The notes under the pieces: generated by a model
What the model saw: only the letters and a program-made list of their open reading frames with translations
Told to the model about the DNA's origin: nothing
The model's database searches: none
Shown: one piece after another, positions 1,846 to 8,063 of the stretch
Layout of the letters: each line of letters starts with the position of its first letter
How positions within the stretch are numbered: the stretch's first letter is position 1
Assembly: GCA_027306505.1 (NCBI GenBank)
Contig: DAHUZP010000017.1
Span: forward strand, 47,244 to 111,243
Reading direction: 5' to 3'
Source of the DNA: Thermoplasmata archaeon
GTDB taxonomy: Archaea; Thermoplasmatota; Thermoplasmata; Lutacidiplasmatales; UBA184
DNA: 64,000 nucleotides
Made by a program: the position numbers and the translations under genes

Positions 1846-2024
1846 ACGGGTCGCGCGCTCATTCGGCGCCGCCTCCCGGCGTGGGGGGGAGACGAGGTGG
1901 GGGGCGGGACCTACGCTTGGGGGGCCCTGCTGACGTACACGGCATCTTCTCCGTCCCAGCGGACGCGACGCTTGTTTCTTATCCGCCCCTCCGTAGGACG
2001 TTGCCCGCACCTCGGGCCGCGCGT

Positions 2025-2046
2025 GCGCCGGTGGCTCAGCCTGGAT
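2025..2046 (+). repeat. attL: 22-bp exact copy of the 5' end of tRNA-Arg (gcgccggtggctcagcctggat)
   Basis: Identical 22-mer at 2025-2046 and 6898-6919. The flanking bases differ between the two copies. Confidence 0.7.
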
Positions 2047-2111
2047 GGTGCGTCCCCCGTCAGAGACGTCGCCCGATTTGGCCCCTTCGCGGTCACGTAC
2101 CCTCCGCTCGC

Positions 2112-3161
2112 CTATCTCGCCCGCAATACGGGCTTGTCGGGGGCTTCCAGGAGGCGGGACACCCTGACCAGGTTCTCCTGGTCCTCCCCAGCGTAGTGCA
2201 TCGCCAGGGTGTCGGGGGTCTTCGCCGAATGTCCCAGAAAGTCGTGCAGGTCGTGGGGGGTCGCCCCCCGCTCCCGCAGGGTGCGGGCCGCACCGCGTCG
2301 CAGGTCGTGGTTGGCGAGTCGGATCCCGACCCTCTCCCCCGCACGGGAGACCATCATGTCGATGGCATGGTCCGACCACGGAACCAGCCGGTCCCCGTCC
2401 ACGTGGACCAGCAGGTAGTCCGACGGGGCTCGCCCTTGCGCCCACTGCTCGCGGAGCTTCTCGTACCACCGTAGCTCGCGCTTCAGCGGCTCGAGCAACT
2501 CCGCCCAGTGGGTCACACGGTCGTACCCCTCCTTCTGCCTGATGCCGATTTTCGCGGCGTCCCAGCGCACATCCCCGCAGCGCGCCCGCATCACGGACAC
2601 CCGACGGAACCCAGCGAAGTACTCCAGCGCAAGGACCACACGCTCTAGTCCCTGCGCGTGGTCCATCAACAGGTCGAACTCCTTGCGCGTGGTCCGTCTC
2701 AGGGGTCCCGTCACGTCGGGGAACCGTCGCTTCAGCACCAGGATGGGCTTGCGAATCGTCGTGTTCCCCTGGTCCGTGAGGAACGACGACAGCCACCCCA
2801 GGTTGGTTCGCACGGTCTTCGGGGCCTCGCCCAGATAGGGCAAGAGCGCCGCGAGATGCGACGGCCCGAACTGTTCCGGCGTGACCGGCATCCCAAGGTC
2901 GGTGGCGAGGAGGCGGCCCAGGCGGGCAAGCTGTGTCCGCACCGTCCTTCCCGGGCGCCCCAGGTACTTGCTTTCCTCTCGGCGTTTCGTTTCCACCCAT
3001 GCTCTGCCTGTCTCTGCCCACCGTCGTGCCGATGTCGGCACGGCGGGTTCCTCCGAATGAACGGAGGAGGCGTCCCCTACTTGGTCGTTGGGGAAGAGAT
3101 GTGCAAGGGAGGTGGCGGGAAGAGCGGTGTACGCGCCCTCCCCGCCGGGGACTCCCGTCAC
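2112..3161 (-). CDS. Tyrosine recombinase / phage-type integrase
   Basis: C-terminal ...HDLRRGAARTLRERGATPHDLHDFLGHSAKTPDTLAMHYAGE... gives the R..H..R..Y catalytic signature. It lies beside a tRNA-derived repeat. Confidence 0.85.
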   Translation of the reverse strand: MTGVPGGEGAYTALPATSLAHLFPNDQVGDASSVHSEEPAVPTSARRWAETGRAWVETKRREESKYLGRPGRTVRTQLARLGRLLATDLGMPVTPEQFGPSHLAALLPYLGEAPKTVRTNLGWLSSFLTDQGNTTIRKPILVLKRRFPDVTGPLRRTTRKEFDLLMDHAQGLERVVLALEYFAGFRRVSVMRARCGDVRWDAAKIGIRQKEGYDRVTHWAELLEPLKRELRWYEKLREQWAQGRAPSDYLLVHVDGDRLVPWSDHAIDMMVSRAGERVGIRLANHDLRRGAARTLRERGATPHDLHDFLGHSAKTPDTLAMHYAGEDQENLVRVSRLLEAPDKPVLRAR

Positions 3162-3283
3162 TACCGAGGCGAGCCGCCTTCAAGAAGGCATCGGCACCCC
3201 TCACCGACCGTACACGGCAGCGCGGGGGAAGAGGTTGCGGAAGAGGGTGGGCCCGGCACGTCGGTTCTCCTGGGCCGGCGGTC

Positions 3284-3604
3284 CTACACCTGGGGGGCCG
3301 CGCGAGGACGACCCCACGCCGCCTCGTACAACGATCCCAGGCCAGCCAACCGCGCAGCCTCGCTCAGCCGCGGCGCCACCTCACGCATCACCCGCGAGTA
3401 GGCAGGCGCGACCACCTCTCCGGCGTGCGCCAACTGGCGGCGCACGTCCTGGAGCTCGGGCTTCTGCCACGCGTCACGAACCGCGACGGACAGCGCCTCC
3501 CGCCCGACCTCCCCGGTCAGCACCGGCCGCGGAACCGTCCGCGCGGCGGTCTCGGTCTCGTTCGTCACAAGGCGTTCCTTCGTCACCACTTCGACTTCTG
3601 GCAT
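3284..3604 (-). CDS. Hypothetical protein (element-borne)
   Basis: 106-aa ORF with strong SD (GGAGGAGGG) upstream. Its start abuts the stop of the ORF above it. Confidence 0.4.
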   Translation of the reverse strand: MPEVEVVTKERLVTNETETAARTVPRPVLTGEVGREALSVAVRDAWQKPELQDVRRQLAHAGEVVAPAYSRVMREVAPRLSEAARLAGLGSLYEAAWGRPRAAPQV

Positions 3605-3988
3605 CTACGTTCCCTCCTCCGGCTTGTCCGAAGGAGCAGGAACGGCCCGAGGTGGGGGCAACGAGCTCCGGGCCTCACCCGGCGGAAGCGATGGACGCAC
3701 ACCTTCCGCCGAAGGCACGAGCTTCAGGTTCACCGTGATCCCGCGACGGGCGCCCTCGAGCGTCCCACGCACCAGCTCCTCTTCCTCTCCGACCGCCACG
3801 TAGAGAGGCGACCCATCGGCCTGCTCATCCGTGGGGACCACGATCACCGCCCGTCGCGCCGTCTCCATCGGCGACAGCCCAACCTCGAGCCCGGCCTCGA
3901 GAGCGGCATGACCTCGCGCCAACAGCACCAGAGTCGCCCGCACAGTCTCTCCCGCCGCCGCTCGCGCCGCCTCTGTTTCCTCGCTCAT
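3605..3988 (-). CDS. Hypothetical protein (element-borne)
   Basis: Internal ATG at 3988 is preceded by a GAGGT SD. 127 aa. Tightly packed with its neighbours. Confidence 0.4.
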   Translation of the reverse strand: MSEETEAARAAAGETVRATLVLLARGHAALEAGLEVGLSPMETARRAVIVVPTDEQADGSPLYVAVGEEEELVRGTLEGARRGITVNLKLVPSAEGVRPSLPPGEARSSLPPPRAVPAPSDKPEEGT

Positions 3989-4404
3989 TGCAACCTCTGA
4001 AGGTGGAAGGTACTCGTGCCGACCACCGCACCGCCCCACCGCACGCGACGCAGAGCAGGGCGCGGTTCCGCCGCAGGAACGGGCGCGAGATGGACCGTCA
4101 AGGCCATCCCAGACAGCCGAGCCAGGACCAGTCGAAGACGACCAATCCAAGCATCGCGGAACGACCGCGCCACGGGCGAGTCGTAGCTCACCTCATCGAC
4201 GGTGTGGATCCGGCCCGGACCGTTGAACTGCTGAGCCAGCAGGTCTCGCGGCGTGACCGACGACGCTGGAGCTCGCCAGCCCTGGCGGAGCCGGGACCCG
4301 CACGCGGGACACTTCTGCATCCAACGCACAGTCCGTAGACGGCCCGCGCTACCGACACGACCTGTCGCTACTGTCCCGCAGTCGCTAGCACTCTCGGTAG
4401 GCAC
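3985..4404 (-). CDS. Hypothetical protein with a single CxxC motif (element-borne)
   Basis: 139-aa ORF carrying CPACGS. It overlaps the next start by 4 nt. Weak support. Confidence 0.3.
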   Translation of the reverse strand: MPTESASDCGTVATGRVGSAGRLRTVRWMQKCPACGSRLRQGWRAPASSVTPRDLLAQQFNGPGRIHTVDEVSYDSPVARSFRDAWIGRLRLVLARLSGMALTVHLAPVPAAEPRPALRRVRWGGAVVGTSTFHLQRLQ

Positions 4405-4457
4405 GGGGGGGTAGTCCCCCTGACGGGGTTAACCATGCGGGATAGGATAGGCCAAGC

Positions 4458-5009
4458 TTGGCCAACCACCCGGACAGACCGTCCAGAAGACGGCCCGCCG
4501 AGGAGGGAGCCCCAACATATATTCCCGACGCAGTGCCTAGGGAGATGGTCAAAGACCGCACCAAGGCCCAGGCAGAGACGACGGAGGACTATCCCCCGGA
4601 GTCCTTCCTCCGAGAGATGGAGCGACGGTCGCATGAACGGGAAATCCCCCTCGCAGAGGTCCTGAAGGAAGCGAGGCTGCGAGCGGGGCCCACGACATAT
4701 ACCACCGACACCTTCCTCACCTCGATGGCCGAACCATGGCTCCAGTTCCACGACCGCCGACGACCGCGTCTCACCGCCGCCCAGAAAGAGGCGCGGCACG
4801 CGGCCGTCCCCCAGAAGGTCCAGGCGTTGCGCCAGATCGCGGACTACCTCAAGATCGCGGACCGCCTCAAGAAGTGTCCGCTGTGCAGACCGCAGTTGCG
4901 CATCGAACCGACCATCGAGAACATCAACTCGCTCACGATCGCGATCAACCGCCTCCAGGCGAAGCACGACCGGCACGTCGCCCAGGACGCCGAGTCGTCA
5001 CGCGCGTAG
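4458..5009 (+). CDS. Hypothetical protein (element-borne)
   Basis: 183-aa ORF with balanced composition (K/E/Y present). TTG or internal ATG start. It diverges from the small-ORF operon and has CPLCRPQ near the C-terminus. Confidence 0.4.
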   Translation: MANHPDRPSRRRPAEEGAPTYIPDAVPREMVKDRTKAQAETTEDYPPESFLREMERRSHEREIPLAEVLKEARLRAGPTTYTTDTFLTSMAEPWLQFHDRRRPRLTAAQKEARHAAVPQKVQALRQIADYLKIADRLKKCPLCRPQLRIEPTIENINSLTIAINRLQAKHDRHVAQDAESSRA

Positions 5010-5010
5010 G

Positions 5011-6459
5011 TCACCACAGTCGCTCCTCCCGAGGAGCCATCAGTCCATGCGGCCCGTACCGATCTCCGTACCTCGCCCCCAGCTCGGACGGTGTCACCGG
5101 ATTCAACGCCGCGCTGTCCTCCTCACCGTCCTCCTTCGGCTCGTCAACCAGTTCGTACACCTGCACATCACGGATCCACGACGGCGGCGGCGGACCGTCC
5201 AGCGTCTTCGCCCAGGGATTCCGATCCAACGCCCATCCGTCCCCCTGCGCCACCAACACGTACCCACCGATCCCCTCACACGCGGCCCCGCAGATCGGGC
5301 ACTCGAGCACGCGCTCCTTCGGCTCCTCCTCCCCGAGCCGCCTCCGCATCTCCGCCTTCAGCCAGTCCATATCCACCAATCGCAACGCGCCGAACTCGAC
5401 GATTGTGTGTCCCCTCGGTAGTACAGCGGCGTGACCGAGCTCGTAGGTCAGGTGTCCCTCAAGCTTCCGCCCCGTATACCACACGAACGGGCTCGCCGGA
5501 TCTCCATGCGCAGTCACGACCTTCACAACCCATCCAGTCCGCGCCTCGTAGCTCTCCGACGGGCTCTCACACAGGCACTCCTTTCCCACGGCGTGGCACC
5601 GCTCGCCCTCCCCTGAGAACGGACGGCACGCACGGCACGACGGCCGATGCCGACGCCGAATGTCCAGGCCCAGAACCAGCATGTGAGCGTGCGGGCCCCA
5701 CGTCGTGTAGCCCTCCCCCTCACAACCCCGCCAGAGATGGACAACAGCCGTCCCGGCGGTCAGGACACCACCCATCTCCCAGAGACCCGCCACGTTCTCT
5801 GCATGTCGACGGACTGCCGCCACCACCTTCCCATCGTCCTCCCCCTCCGCGTAGACCCCTGGAGGAGCACTCACAACCACCTGGAGCCAGCCATCCGACA
5901 TCCGAGACTCCAACCGGATCACACCCGCCCCTCCGCACCTCGTGCAACGCTCCCGGCATCCCTTCACCCCGCAATCGATCCGAGGCACCTTGCGGCATCC
6001 AGAGCACACGGTGTAGCCCTTCCCACGACACCGGGGGCAGTTCACCGCCAGTCCTCCGCCCCCAGGATTCTCCCTCGATACAGGTTGCACCAGACGCCTG
6101 AACAGCTCAAGCTTCTTCGCCTCCTCTCCAGCGAGCTCATGCGCCCACGCACCACCCCCGTGCGCCTTCCTCAACACACACCGTTCCAACGTCCCATCGC
6201 ACCTCCCCGCGCAGGTCGGGCAACCCGGGGTCAAGCAACCCAGATGGACCCCCACGACCGCCGCGTGGTCGGGCGCCACGTGCTTCAGGCGGGTGTGAAA
6301 CGTCCCGCAGCCTGGCGGTCGCGCCCCCTGCCCCGGAAGGCTCGCGTGGCGCTCGGACCCCCAGGACCCCCCCCCCGGGAGGCTCGCAGGAGCCCACGAC
6401 CCCCTCCCAATATCCTCTATGGGGGCTGGATAAGGAGGCGGGACGGAGGAGACGGCCAC
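5011..6459 (-). CDS. Cys-rich putative replication initiator (HUH-like motif)
   Basis: 482 aa. Several CxxC clusters (CPTCAGRC, CPRCRGKGYTVCSGCRK...CTRCGG, CPICGAAC). GPHAHMLVLG resembles an HUH motif 2, and VWYTGRK...HLTYELGH are possible catalytic Tyr segments. The opposite-strand ORF is P/R junk. Confidence 0.5.
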   Translation of the reverse strand: MAVSSVPPPYPAPIEDIGRGSWAPASLPGGGSWGSERHASLPGQGARPPGCGTFHTRLKHVAPDHAAVVGVHLGCLTPGCPTCAGRCDGTLERCVLRKAHGGGAWAHELAGEEAKKLELFRRLVQPVSRENPGGGGLAVNCPRCRGKGYTVCSGCRKVPRIDCGVKGCRERCTRCGGAGVIRLESRMSDGWLQVVVSAPPGVYAEGEDDGKVVAAVRRHAENVAGLWEMGGVLTAGTAVVHLWRGCEGEGYTTWGPHAHMLVLGLDIRRRHRPSCRACRPFSGEGERCHAVGKECLCESPSESYEARTGWVVKVVTAHGDPASPFVWYTGRKLEGHLTYELGHAAVLPRGHTIVEFGALRLVDMDWLKAEMRRRLGEEEPKERVLECPICGAACEGIGGYVLVAQGDGWALDRNPWAKTLDGPPPPSWIRDVQVYELVDEPKEDGEEDSAALNPVTPSELGARYGDRYGPHGLMAPREERLW

Positions 6460-6897
6460 GGTCTACCACCTCGGGTCGGCGGTCGAGAGGCAACGCTGAG
6501 CGTGGGTGGGGCACCACGCGCCGAGCTGGTCCGCGAGGTCGCCACCGCGGACGTGGGCCCCGGCAGAGCAACCGCAATCGGCGCAGGGACCGCCGGGAGC
6601 CCTCGCGTGCTCCTGGGACGTAAGCGGTGTCAGGGGGGGGCGCGTCGAGGGCTCAGAGACGCCCCGGAGCACGTTCCCGACACGGAAGGAGAGGGAGCCC
6701 CCGGTTTCCCGGGGGGAAGGGGTTGACGGTTGGCGCGTTGTGTCACGACGGCGGGCTCGGAGGAGGCAGAGCAGCGAGTCGAACGCGGCGCCGGAGTCGC
6801 AAGGGCCTGGGGCGGGGAGCGACGCTCTTATCTCCCGAAGGCTCGGGCCGGGCGAGGGGCGTTGCCCGGAAAGGGCCGTTTTCGGGCAGCGTCCTAG

Positions 6898-6972
6898 GCG
6901 CCGGTGGCTCAGCCTGGATAGAGCGTTCGGTTCCTAACCGAAACGTCGTGGGTCCGAATCCCACCCGGCGCG
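6898..6972 (+). tRNA. tRNA-Arg (anticodon CCT), no encoded CCA
   Basis: Hand-folded cloverleaf: acceptor GCGCCGG/CCGGCGC, D-arm GCTC-AGCCTGGATA-GAGC, anticodon stem TTCGG/CCGAA with loop TTCCTAA, T-arm GTGGG-TCCGAAT-CCCAC, discriminator G. Confidence 0.85.
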
Positions 6973-7013: not shown

Positions 7014-8063
7014 ATGCAACGCGCGCGGGAGAGGAGGGACCGCGGTGAGGACCGCTCCCCGCCTCGCCCCCGCTCCCGCTCCCGCGGGGAAGCTCCGAAG
7101 GGTGGGGTACCTTCCCGGGCGCAGTATCGAGGTTCGGGGAGGTTCCAGCGGGCCGGGCCCTACGAGGTCGAGCGGGAATGGCGCCGGTTCGAGGGCACGC
7201 CTCAACGAGAGCTCCTGCGCACGCTCCGCGAGCGGTTCCTGGAGAGGGCCCTGGAGACCTCGGGCCCCGTGGCGCGAGCCCTGGAGGTGGGCCCGGGGCC
7301 GGGCCGGTTCTCTCCCTGGGTCGCCCAGGGTGCGCGTCGCGTCGTTCTCTTAGAGCTCTCTCCCGCGATGTTGGAGGCGGCCCTGCGGTCCGCCCCGAGG
7401 GGCCCGCCGGTCCCGCGGGGCTCCTCGAGGACCCCCGAGACCGTGTGGGAGCCGCTGCTGGGGGACGCGAGGAGGCTCCCCTTGCGTCGGGAGAGCTTCC
7501 CGAGGGTCGTCGCGCTCGGCAACGTGGTCGGCTTCGCCGCCCCGAAGGGGGCCGCGCTGCTCCGGGACCTCGCCGAGACCGTCGCCCCTGGCGGAACGCT
7601 CATCGTGGAGAGCGTCGGGGCCGTGAAAGAGCGGCCACGCTTCCTCGCCTCCCTCAACGGGGAAGGAATCCTGGCGCTGCTCGCCCGGACCCCCCTGGAG
7701 GAGCTCCCCCGTCGCCTCGCCGAGGGGTGGGCACCGCCCTCTTCCGACCGGTCGCCCCGCTCTCCAGAGCGGAGCCGGGAGGGCGAGCTTCCCTCCAGCT
7801 TCCAGTTCCTCTCCGCCTCCGAGGTCCGAGGGACCCTCGAACGCTGCGGCCTCCTGGTCCGGCGACAGAGGGTCATGGCTCCCCTCCTGGGGGACGATCC
7901 CCGCCGCCTCCTCTGGGTCAGCGAGCGGGGAGGGCCCCGCTCCTGGCGGGCCTTGCTCCAGTGGGAGGAGACGGCAGGGGGCCACCCTCGCATCGTGGAG
8001 GCAGGGGGTCACCTGCTCACCTTCGCGACACGGCCAGGGGTCCCGAGGAGCGTCGGGGTCTAA
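7014..8063 (+). CDS. Class I SAM-dependent methyltransferase
   Basis: Motif I LEVGPGPGRF and post-I ...PRVVALGNVVGF... plus GGTLIVE. The N-terminal ~60 aa are R-rich, so the start may be later. The upstream part of the computed ORF overlaps the tRNA and is rejected. Confidence 0.55.
   Translation: MQRARERRDRGEDRSPPRPRSRSRGEAPKGGVPSRAQYRGSGRFQRAGPYEVEREWRRFEGTPQRELLRTLRERFLERALETSGPVARALEVGPGPGRFSPWVAQGARRVVLLELSPAMLEAALRSAPRGPPVPRGSSRTPETVWEPLLGDARRLPLRRESFPRVVALGNVVGFAAPKGAALLRDLAETVAPGGTLIVESVGAVKERPRFLASLNGEGILALLARTPLEELPRRLAEGWAPPSSDRSPRSPERSREGELPSSFQFLSASEVRGTLERCGLLVRRQRVMAPLLGDDPRRLLWVSERGGPRSWRALLQWEETAGGHPRIVEAGGHLLTFATRPGVPRSVGV

Follow-up and report, generated by a model that had tools for sequence, protein, structure and literature searches.

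A probable integrative rolling-circle replicon at the 5' end of a tRNA-Arg(CCT) gene in an uncultured Thermoplasmata archaeon

Integrated elements that use the 5' end of a tRNA gene are rare. The published archaeal precedent is provided by the suicidal integrases of pTN3-like elements. The passage of PMC8371274 that treats these integrases calls them 'unique in archaea' in using the tRNA gene's 5' half, and describes a rebuilt tRNA which is expressed from element DNA. For pTN3, PMC5495485 reports 41 bp of identity, a split integrase gene, and a tRNA which is separated from its promoter. NitAQ6f-E2 is a cryptic integrated element of the thaumarchaea; in the part of PMC6563490 devoted to it, it is credited with an integrase and with a homologue of SNJ1 RepA as its rolling-circle initiator. 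The virus SNJ1, a 16-kb episome, is extrachromosomal and replicates by a RepA-dependent rolling-circle mechanism (PMC12642351). The pleolipovirus SNJ2 carries a tRNA-targeting integrase and the initiator Rep-Arvir. According to PMC13107129, the SNJ2 replication operon is assembled only after excision, and Rep-Arvir is related to Rep_trans and is not an HUH protein. The locus described here lies in 64,000 nt of a Thermoplasmata archaeon (contig DAHUZP010000017.1, positions 47,244 to 111,243; hereafter the window). It is a 4,873-bp segment inserted at a tRNA-Arg(CCT) gene.

The segment is probably an integrative rolling-circle replicon, i.e. a cryptic integrated plasmid, of an uncultured archaeon whose DNA in the window is about 70% GC (guanine plus cytosine). 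Evidence for this reading includes a direct repeat which matches the tRNA, the structure of related genomes, an intact tyrosine integrase, and a protein related to the SNJ1 initiator. The coordinates of all features are collected in Table 1.

The tRNA-Arg(CCT) gene is the only tRNA gene in the window. By standard codon-anticodon pairing, its product reads the arginine codon AGG. The 22-mer GCGCCGGTGGCTCAGCCTGGAT is found exactly twice in the window, and still only twice when up to three mismatches are allowed; the number expected from 100 dinucleotide-preserving shuffles is zero. Identity between the copies begins exactly at tRNA position +1, and 27 of 29 positions agree as far as +29 (2053 in the left copy). 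The repeat takes in the acceptor stem's 5' strand and the greater part of the D-arm. A second, independent assembly at NCBI (GCA_027315705.1) differs from the window by 9 mismatches and no gaps in 11.8 kb (99.92% identity) and has identical repeats; two read-set assemblies from Logan also contain portions of the element. An artefact of a single assembly can therefore not account for the repeat. The preliminary description of this locus had reported an exact 22-nt repeat of tRNA positions 1-22 around some 4.85 kb. This is borne out, with 22 of 22 positions agreeing in both NCBI assemblies and a start-to-start spacing of 4,873 bp. It had also named the tRNA's 5' half as the attachment site; the 5' end is indeed used, but only 22 of the 75 nt are involved. 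Two extensions of the repeat were considered and rejected. The sequences CGTTGCCCG and CTTATC, which are shared upstream of both copies, do not amount to a significant longer attL/attR homology (42 of 1000 shuffles reach the local alignment score), and the continuation of attL does not significantly resemble the rest of the tRNA, as a decayed tRNA copy would (864 of 1000 shuffles).

The segment is missing from related genomes. Twelve syntenic loci from two related species (L019-L030) were obtained via members of the thioredoxin cluster. Upstream of the segment, the window encodes the replication factor C small subunit, MoaC, a molybdopterin-binding protein (MoCF) and thioredoxin; downstream of the tRNA lie an S-adenosylmethionine (SAM) methyltransferase (7014-8063), malate synthase and isocitrate lyase. 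Replication factor C identifies the host as archaeal, and NCBI lists proteins from the same 90%-identity clusters under 'Euryarchaeota archaeon'. This order, with the tRNA between thioredoxin and the methyltransferase, is kept at all twelve loci, none of which has the 4.87-kb segment. The tRNA begins with the same sequence as that of the window in 11 of the 11 loci that reach it, and is identical over all 75 nt in L019 and L020. The window thus has what is expected of an integrative element at a tRNA gene, namely a tRNA-matching direct repeat bounding DNA that is absent from related genomes, and the mobile insertion proposed in the preliminary description is upheld by element-free loci with the same neighbours and tRNA. 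A query with the methyltransferase gave no match in the scan of the genome contigs collection.

The interval between thioredoxin and the tRNA varies. It holds a gene for aRF1 (431 aa) in L021-L030 (7319-8812 in L021; cut by the contig end in L030) and a GNAT acetyltransferase gene on the opposite strand in L019 and L020 (8319-9448 in L019). In the more distant L013 there is an aRF1-like gene of 375 aa (2210-3460), and the end of a similar gene is seen in L015. In the window, only 179 nt (1846-2024) separate thioredoxin from the left repeat. No tblastn match to aRF1 was found anywhere in the 64 kb; the essential aRF1 gene must therefore sit elsewhere in the genome.

The flanks of the two repeat copies are decisive as to the side on which the insertion took place. 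When the 60 nt that precede the left repeat are aligned with the 60 nt before the L021 tRNA, the score is 15 (shuffle mean 5.6, standard deviation 2.0), which 3 of 2000 shuffles reach. Both sequences consist of (T/C)TCTTATCC, then 39 or 40 nt, then GCGCGT immediately followed by the GCGCC of the tRNA start; in L021 the native upstream sequence is CTCTTATCC, 39 nt, and the tRNA. A CTTATCC TATA-like box is thus found at the same spacing in the attL flank and in native tRNA upstream regions. The 60 nt to the left of the intact tRNA in the window do not align with this L021 sequence, the score being equalled by 256 of 2000 shuffles. Since the attL flank matches the native tRNA upstream region and the attR flank does not, these alignments show that the element entered on the 5' side of the tRNA gene, as had been proposed, and that the native promoter region was orphaned at attL.

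The gene next to attL encodes a tyrosine integrase, in agreement with the preliminary description. The protein matches Pfam Phage_integrase (PF00589; E 5.7e-12, 46.2 bits against a cut-off of 27.1) and PHROG integrase families 216 and 1; its nearest solved structure is XerA of Pyrococcus abyssi (4a8e, E 3.9e-9). The catalytic R/HxxR/H/Y residues are all present when read by eye from the translation (AGFRRVS, NHDLRRG, FLGHS, AMHYAG). The stop codon is 65 nt from the left repeat; the att site therefore lies outside the integrase gene. The integrase is rare: a search of 5.8 billion proteins gave only one reasonably close relative, P0004, with 41% identity. Homology to P0004 begins at residue 37 and ends at residue 341 of the 349-aa form, so the 276-aa call made by NCBI is too short. 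The integrase has no relative in IMG/VR and no tblastn match at E <= 1e-5 in the plasmid or phage collections; at E <= 1, these collections give only recombinases that are about 25-28% identical, from Thermus plasmids and a Methanomassiliicoccales virus.

The relative P0004 is also found beside a tRNA-Arg(CCT) gene. On contig L009, 59 nt separate the end of its gene from an intact tRNA-Arg(CCT) that lies downstream and has the same orientation. In the metagenome contigs L013 and L015, a near-identical tRNA is preceded by aRF1 and a TTATATGCG box; at that position L009 has the integrase and an unrelated spacer containing AAAATTT. The L009 element shares only the integrase gene with that of the window, and in the two elements this gene is oppositely oriented with respect to the tRNA. 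That another element, unrelated in all else, occupies the 5' side of the same tRNA species suggests that target specificity is a property of this integrase clade. No tRNA is present on the contigs of P0005 and P0006, integrases with 29-33% identity. It should be noted that a unitig with the P0004 integrase gene (L010 2023-2045, corresponding to L009 3186-3208; Logan SRR13188939) stops at tRNA position +20, near the end of the window repeat at +22. This is where an attR/attP branch would be placed if integrated and circular forms coexisted; it may equally be a drop in coverage.

The 482-aa cysteine-rich protein noted in the preliminary description is the putative replication initiator (Rep). 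It has no match in Pfam, PHROGs or NCBIfam, no relative in IMG/VR, and no tblastn match at E <= 0.01 in the plasmid or phage collections. A word-index search found only two relatives; when 1.84 billion representatives were searched exhaustively with a profile, 55 came to light. The family comprises about 55 clusters at 50% identity among the 1.8 billion representatives, and is without a Pfam model. In an alignment of 53 sequences, H257, H259, Y339, H343 and G357 are invariant, and H241 and R244 are nearly so; the window protein carries the motifs VVVSAPPG, HLWRG, GPHAH (H257, H259) and YELGH (Y339, H343). The HxH...Y signature, with its single invariant tyrosine, and a match to the HUH Rep fold place it among the HUH nucleases. 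The same signature and fold set it apart from the Rep-Arvir/Rep_trans family, which was considered and rejected.

Similarity to SNJ1 RepA emerges at the profile-profile level and not at that of BLAST. With hhalign, the family profile matches SNJ1 RepA with a probability of 98.75% (E 1.4e-16, 199 columns), and the match extends over the N-terminal cysteine cluster and the hhVISPP, HUH and Y..H motifs. Because of this match, and of the RepA-dependent rolling-circle replication of SNJ1, the 482-aa protein is identified by its profile as a divergent SNJ1-RepA-like, IS91-related HUH initiator. Additional cysteine-rich insertions at residues ~145-180 and ~270-300 have low pLDDT (predicted local distance difference test) values.

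Two further observations concern the rep gene. A run of ten C residues (6367-6376; G10 on the coding strand) lies within rep, in the conserved LPGxG segment, and is a potential slippage-prone site; the ORF (open reading frame) is otherwise intact. In the gene calls of GCA_027315705.1 (L002/L004, corresponding to window 2112-6726), rep is split into a 192-aa C-terminal fragment and a spurious 359-aa ORF on the opposite strand, and it is here that the integrase is cut to 276 aa. The DNA of that assembly is intact, with the full-length ORFs open, and the calls are wrong; screens based on annotation would therefore miss Rep. A family member, P0002 (32% identity), is encoded on a Logan contig (L008 1-5029; ERR5523205), where it is followed by nine small, co-directional and often overlapping genes without family matches. 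This compact layout resembles that of a virus, and a replicon of another kind may here make use of the same Rep family.

The origin and life cycle of the element can be outlined as follows. Its own integrase would have recombined an attP site, in which tRNA-Arg(CCT) positions 1-22 are duplicated, with the chromosomal tRNA gene at its 5' end; strand exchange presumably occurred somewhere inside the 22 bp. The products would be attL, consisting of the native promoter region, a 22-nt tRNA stub and the element, and attR, consisting of the element and the complete tRNA. The predicted attP junction reads ...TTTTCGGGCAGCGTCCTAG, GCGCCGGTGGCTCAGCCTGGAT, GGTGCGTCCCCCGTCAGAG... (in shorter form GCAGCGTCCTAG, GCGCCGGTGGCTCAGCCTGGAT, GGTGCGTCCCCC), and the predicted attB junction reads ...CACCTCGGGCCGCGCGT, GCGCCGGTGGCTCAGCCTGGAT, AGAGCGTTCGGTTCC... 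The tRNA sequence would be restored by this event, with the gene now 4.9 kb from its original promoter. Because integration displaced the native promoter, the tRNA would have to be transcribed from element DNA, possibly from a CTCTTATCT box 65 nt upstream, to give a leader which contains a hairpin. The preliminary description had the element supplying both the 5' half and the promoter of the tRNA; the native promoter region is indeed stranded at attL and the tRNA does lie behind element DNA, but the supply of a promoter is a prediction. Excision by the integrase would yield a 4,873-bp circle if the element is still mobile. The RepA-like HUH endonuclease would then nick one strand at an origin and prime rolling-circle synthesis of the circle. 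The four small ORFan proteins probably act in regulation, copy control or excision directionality.

Several observations weigh against an integrative replicon of this kind, or against parts of the scheme. The relatives with empty tRNA-Arg sites are somewhat distant, their flanking genes having only about 77-82% nucleotide identity to the window. They also hold a different gene between thioredoxin and the tRNA, so the comparison of before and after is not clean. Neither an excised circle nor an empty site of the same species was seen in the Logan unitigs and assemblies that contain the element, and the only Logan unitig across the right junction (L001, SRR10333328) runs continuously from the element into the tRNA. 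The element-borne promoter relies on a 7-9-nt motif that was picked post hoc. A replication origin was not found; the k-mers shared with other contigs of the Rep family are scattered chance matches, and there is no conserved non-coding motif. Finally, the four small proteins have no homologues among significant matches in Pfam, PHROGs and NCBIfam. The end of L001 at tRNA position +30 was considered as evidence of an empty site and rejected, as L005 begins at 6944. The tRNA thus forms a unitig of its own that branches on both sides, which shows only that other genomes share this tRNA. Another Logan unitig (L012, SRR13766253) is 100% identical to window 3904..2075; its end at 2075 falls within the element, 29 nt from the left repeat, and no att-related branch point exists there.

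In one rival reading, the integration is real but excision no longer possible, the element now being simply the upstream region of the tRNA. No evidence of attP or of attB from the same species was found, and four of the four data sets with the element are compatible with the integrated form. Loss of an element-borne promoter would be harmful, although excision itself would not, and selection would then keep the right end in place. However, all six ORFs are intact across independent assemblies, with three single-nucleotide differences in 4.6 kb of which two are non-coding; the repeats are still identical at 22 of 22 positions, and the catalytic residues of integrase and Rep are all present. 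A fixed remnant is rather unlikely. Less probable still is a provirus, either minimal or defective, or else a helper virus's satellite, in which one or more of the small ORFan proteins would be structural or would be packaged by the helper. The characterised homologue of Rep belongs to a virus, the L008 contig of the Rep family has its virus-like row of nine small genes, and the 106-aa ORF has a very weak PHROG match to 'virion structural protein' (E 0.039). That match is not significant, however, and no capsid protein, packaging ATPase, membrane protein or transmembrane segment was detected. Neither IMG/VR nor the phage collection gave matches (the tRNA 27-mer also has none in IMG/VR). Matches in BFVD were weak, and most of them unnamed. 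To our knowledge, 4.9 kb and six genes is below the size of any archaeal virus, which also counts against a provirus. The preliminary description had left the choice between a cryptic integrative plasmid and a minimal provirus; the homology of Rep to SNJ1 RepA, together with a lack of anything resembling a structural protein, fits this description.

Two other explanations were weighed. The HUH protein could be an IS91-like rolling-circle transposase or a conjugative relaxase, so that the element would move by HUH-mediated transposition or mobilisation, with integrase and repeat both incidental. Seven family members match the IS91 transposase zinc-binding domain, two match the NCBIfam IS91 transposase model, and the best matches in a PDB sequence-profile search are the relaxases TrwC, NES and TraI. 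These matches are weak (E 0.0055 and worse, against 1.4e-16 for SNJ1 RepA), and the window protein itself matches no IS91 model. IS91 transposases are described as two-tyrosine enzymes, whereas this family has one invariant tyrosine. IS91 is not known to make a target duplication, and a 22-nt repeat which starts at tRNA +1 beside a tyrosine integrase is a signature of site-specific recombination. Membership of the IS91 transposon family was accordingly rejected for an element of six genes with an integrase and such a repeat, and the transposase or relaxase explanation is very improbable. The left repeat might instead be a chance match, or might have been left by a partial duplication of the tRNA that had nothing to do with the genes enclosed by the two copies. 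Nothing but the shortness of the repeat favours this. No match is expected in shuffles even at three mismatches, native tRNA upstream sequence precedes the left copy, and the DNA between the copies is absent from relatives and encodes an integrase; on these sequence comparisons, a chance repeat is effectively refuted. An integrative rolling-circle replicon remains the reading that is adopted here.

Table 1. Features of the integrated element and its target (window coordinates)
Feature	Coordinates	Strand	Basis
Orphaned native tRNA-Arg(CCT) upstream region, putative promoter; TTCTTATCC (1976-1984) is a TATA-like box, followed after 40 nt by the repeat	1976..2024	+	Alignment with L021
attL core, left copy of the 22-nt repeat (tRNA positions 1-22)	2025..2046	+	Repeat search
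Tyrosine integrase, intact, unsplit; exact start uncertain	2112..3161	-	Pfam, PHROG, structure match
106-aa ORFan, last gene of three-gene operon	3284..3604	-	GC3 0.84; separate gene calls on Logan and NCBI contigs; no family match
127-aa acidic ORFan, middle operon gene	3605..3988	-	No family match
111-aa basic protein with CxxC zinc-ribbon-like motif, first operon gene; could extend to 4404	3985..4320	-	Zn_ribbon_3 weak (E 0.024); isoelectric point 11.7; gene call on L001
Divergent region, putative control region	4321..4544		Read from sequence
154-aa ORFan (183 aa from TTG 4458), divergent from operon, convergent with rep	4545..5009	+	GC3 0.85; NCBI gene call; no family match
RepA-like HUH rolling-circle endonuclease (predicted), 482 aa, 23 Cys; N-terminal and inserted Cys clusters	5011..6459	-	Family profile
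438-nt non-coding region, 73% GC, now upstream of the tRNA; candidate functions in text	6460..6897		
attR core, right copy of the 22-nt repeat (first 22 nt of intact tRNA)	6898..6919	+	Repeat search
Intact tRNA-Arg(CCT), target gene	6898..6972	+	ARAGORN; Rfam, 61.4 bits

The three small ORFs in a row and the divergent 183-aa ORF of the preliminary description are present, and the three abut or overlap. All four small ORFs have third-position GC contents (GC3) of the coding type (0.74-0.85); for element genes as a whole the range is 0.74-0.87, against 0.86-0.93 in host genes. The four proteins have no counterpart on contigs L006, L008 and L009. No transmembrane segments are predicted in the element proteins (maximum KD19 below 1.4), and nothing similar to a capsid, packaging or membrane protein was found among them in Pfam or PHROG. 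The divergent region has a perfect 14-bp palindrome, GGCCAAGCTTGGCC (4450-4463), with a GGATA GGATA repeat before it (from 4440). An AT-rich TATA-like box, ACATATATT (4516-4524), is located about 25 nt before the ATG at 4545, and would imply a leaderless transcript. In its sequence, the region looks like a small operator-promoter switch.

The non-coding region at the right end is a candidate site for an element-borne tRNA promoter, an attP arm and/or a replication origin. The TATA-like CTCTTATCT box (6825-6833) has the same motif as the native box in L021. There are only four copies of the heptamer YTTATCY in the window, two of them upstream of the two repeat copies. A hairpin of 38 nt (6857-6894), with 16 pairs, is separated by 3 nt from the 5' end of the mature tRNA. 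Three of its pairs are G.T, so it would be more stable on the + strand or as + strand RNA. If the CTCTTATCT box is the promoter, the pre-tRNA leader would correspond almost exactly to the hairpin. The 438-nt region as a whole folds no better than shuffled sequences (z = -0.23). The element differs between the window and GCA_027315705.1 at only two positions, C/A at 6848 and G/T at 6859; both differences are also found in L001, along with one more at 4655. The changes at 6848 and 6859 are non-coding and fall upstream of the tRNA, in the interval from the TATA-like box to the hairpin.

A broader interpretation is offered only tentatively, and is doubtful. A non-suicidal, Xer-like integrase lineage may have specialised independently on the first ~20 nt of tRNA-Arg(CCT), with elements that take over transcription of the tRNA through a TATA-box look-alike and a hairpin leader; supply of the tRNA would then be dependent on, or regulated by, the element. 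If true, such a takeover would amount to addiction or capture of the host, and the position of the att core at the 5' end of the tRNA would be accounted for.

The element is of wider relevance in several respects. It joins an integrase to an initiator of the SNJ1-RepA type in only 4.9 kb, which is very compact. The Rep family extends the sparsely sampled replication proteins of archaea into a non-halophilic, high-GC lineage known only from metagenome-assembled genomes. An integrating replicon with six genes and defined att sites could seed genetic tools for this uncultured lineage, and the locus is a clean test case for the expression of an archaeal tRNA gene after loss of its promoter.

Among known systems, the pTN3/TKV4-type elements of Thermococcales, which have SSV-family integrases, resemble the window element in outcome: in the sections concerned, the 5' part of the tRNA is used and the full tRNA is rebuilt away from its promoter (PMC8371274, PMC5495485). 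They differ in the arrangement of the integrase gene. In the pTN3/TKV4 type, attP is inside the integrase gene and integration splits it, whereas the window gene is continuous and encodes all catalytic residues, its stop is 65 nt from the repeat, and the region beside attR is non-coding. The behaviour is thus shared, with the 5' part of the tRNA serving as attB in both, but the intact integrase gene places the window integrase outside the suicidal SSV/pTN3 type. The identity block also differs, being 41 bp in pTN3 and 22 bp in the window element. The pTN3/TKV4-type elements are plasmids or viruses of 13-20 kb and have other replication proteins. No Thermococcales plasmid is found among the listed best matches or the named top genera of the tblastn search with the integrase (E up to 1), in a collection where the presence of pTN3 was not checked. 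The window integrase and P0004 probably represent a second lineage of integrases which came independently to use a tRNA gene at its 5' end. In the window and in L009, the outcome is the same as in pTN3, with an integrase that is Xer-like, intact and apparently unrelated; this argues that promoter-displacing integration arose more than once.

With respect to replication, the element resembles NitAQ6f-E2, which also combines an integrase with an SNJ1-type Rep; it belongs to a different phylum and is compared here through its published description. In the portion of the literature cited above, it is the one published archaeal precedent for this combination. SNJ1 (Simuloviridae) is haloarchaeal; its RepA has 481 aa, against 482 aa in the window Rep, which has no BLAST-level similarity to it and carries the extra cysteine-rich insertions. 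No integrase is annotated in the SNJ1 record, whereas the window element has one. SNJ2 resembles the window element as a temperate archaeal element that joins an integrase to a rolling-circle initiator, but it is a virus with structural genes, and its Rep-Arvir is not an HUH protein. In bacteria, the pSAM2-type elements of actinomycetes (AICEs) have a tRNA-targeting tyrosine integrase and an HUH rolling-circle Rep which is used after excision. AICEs are about 10-25 kb long and include a module for conjugation; because they enter the tRNA gene at its 3' end, the gene retains its native promoter. The window element follows the same overall logic as AICEs, and differs from them in its size, in the conjugation module, and in the end of the tRNA at which it is integrated.

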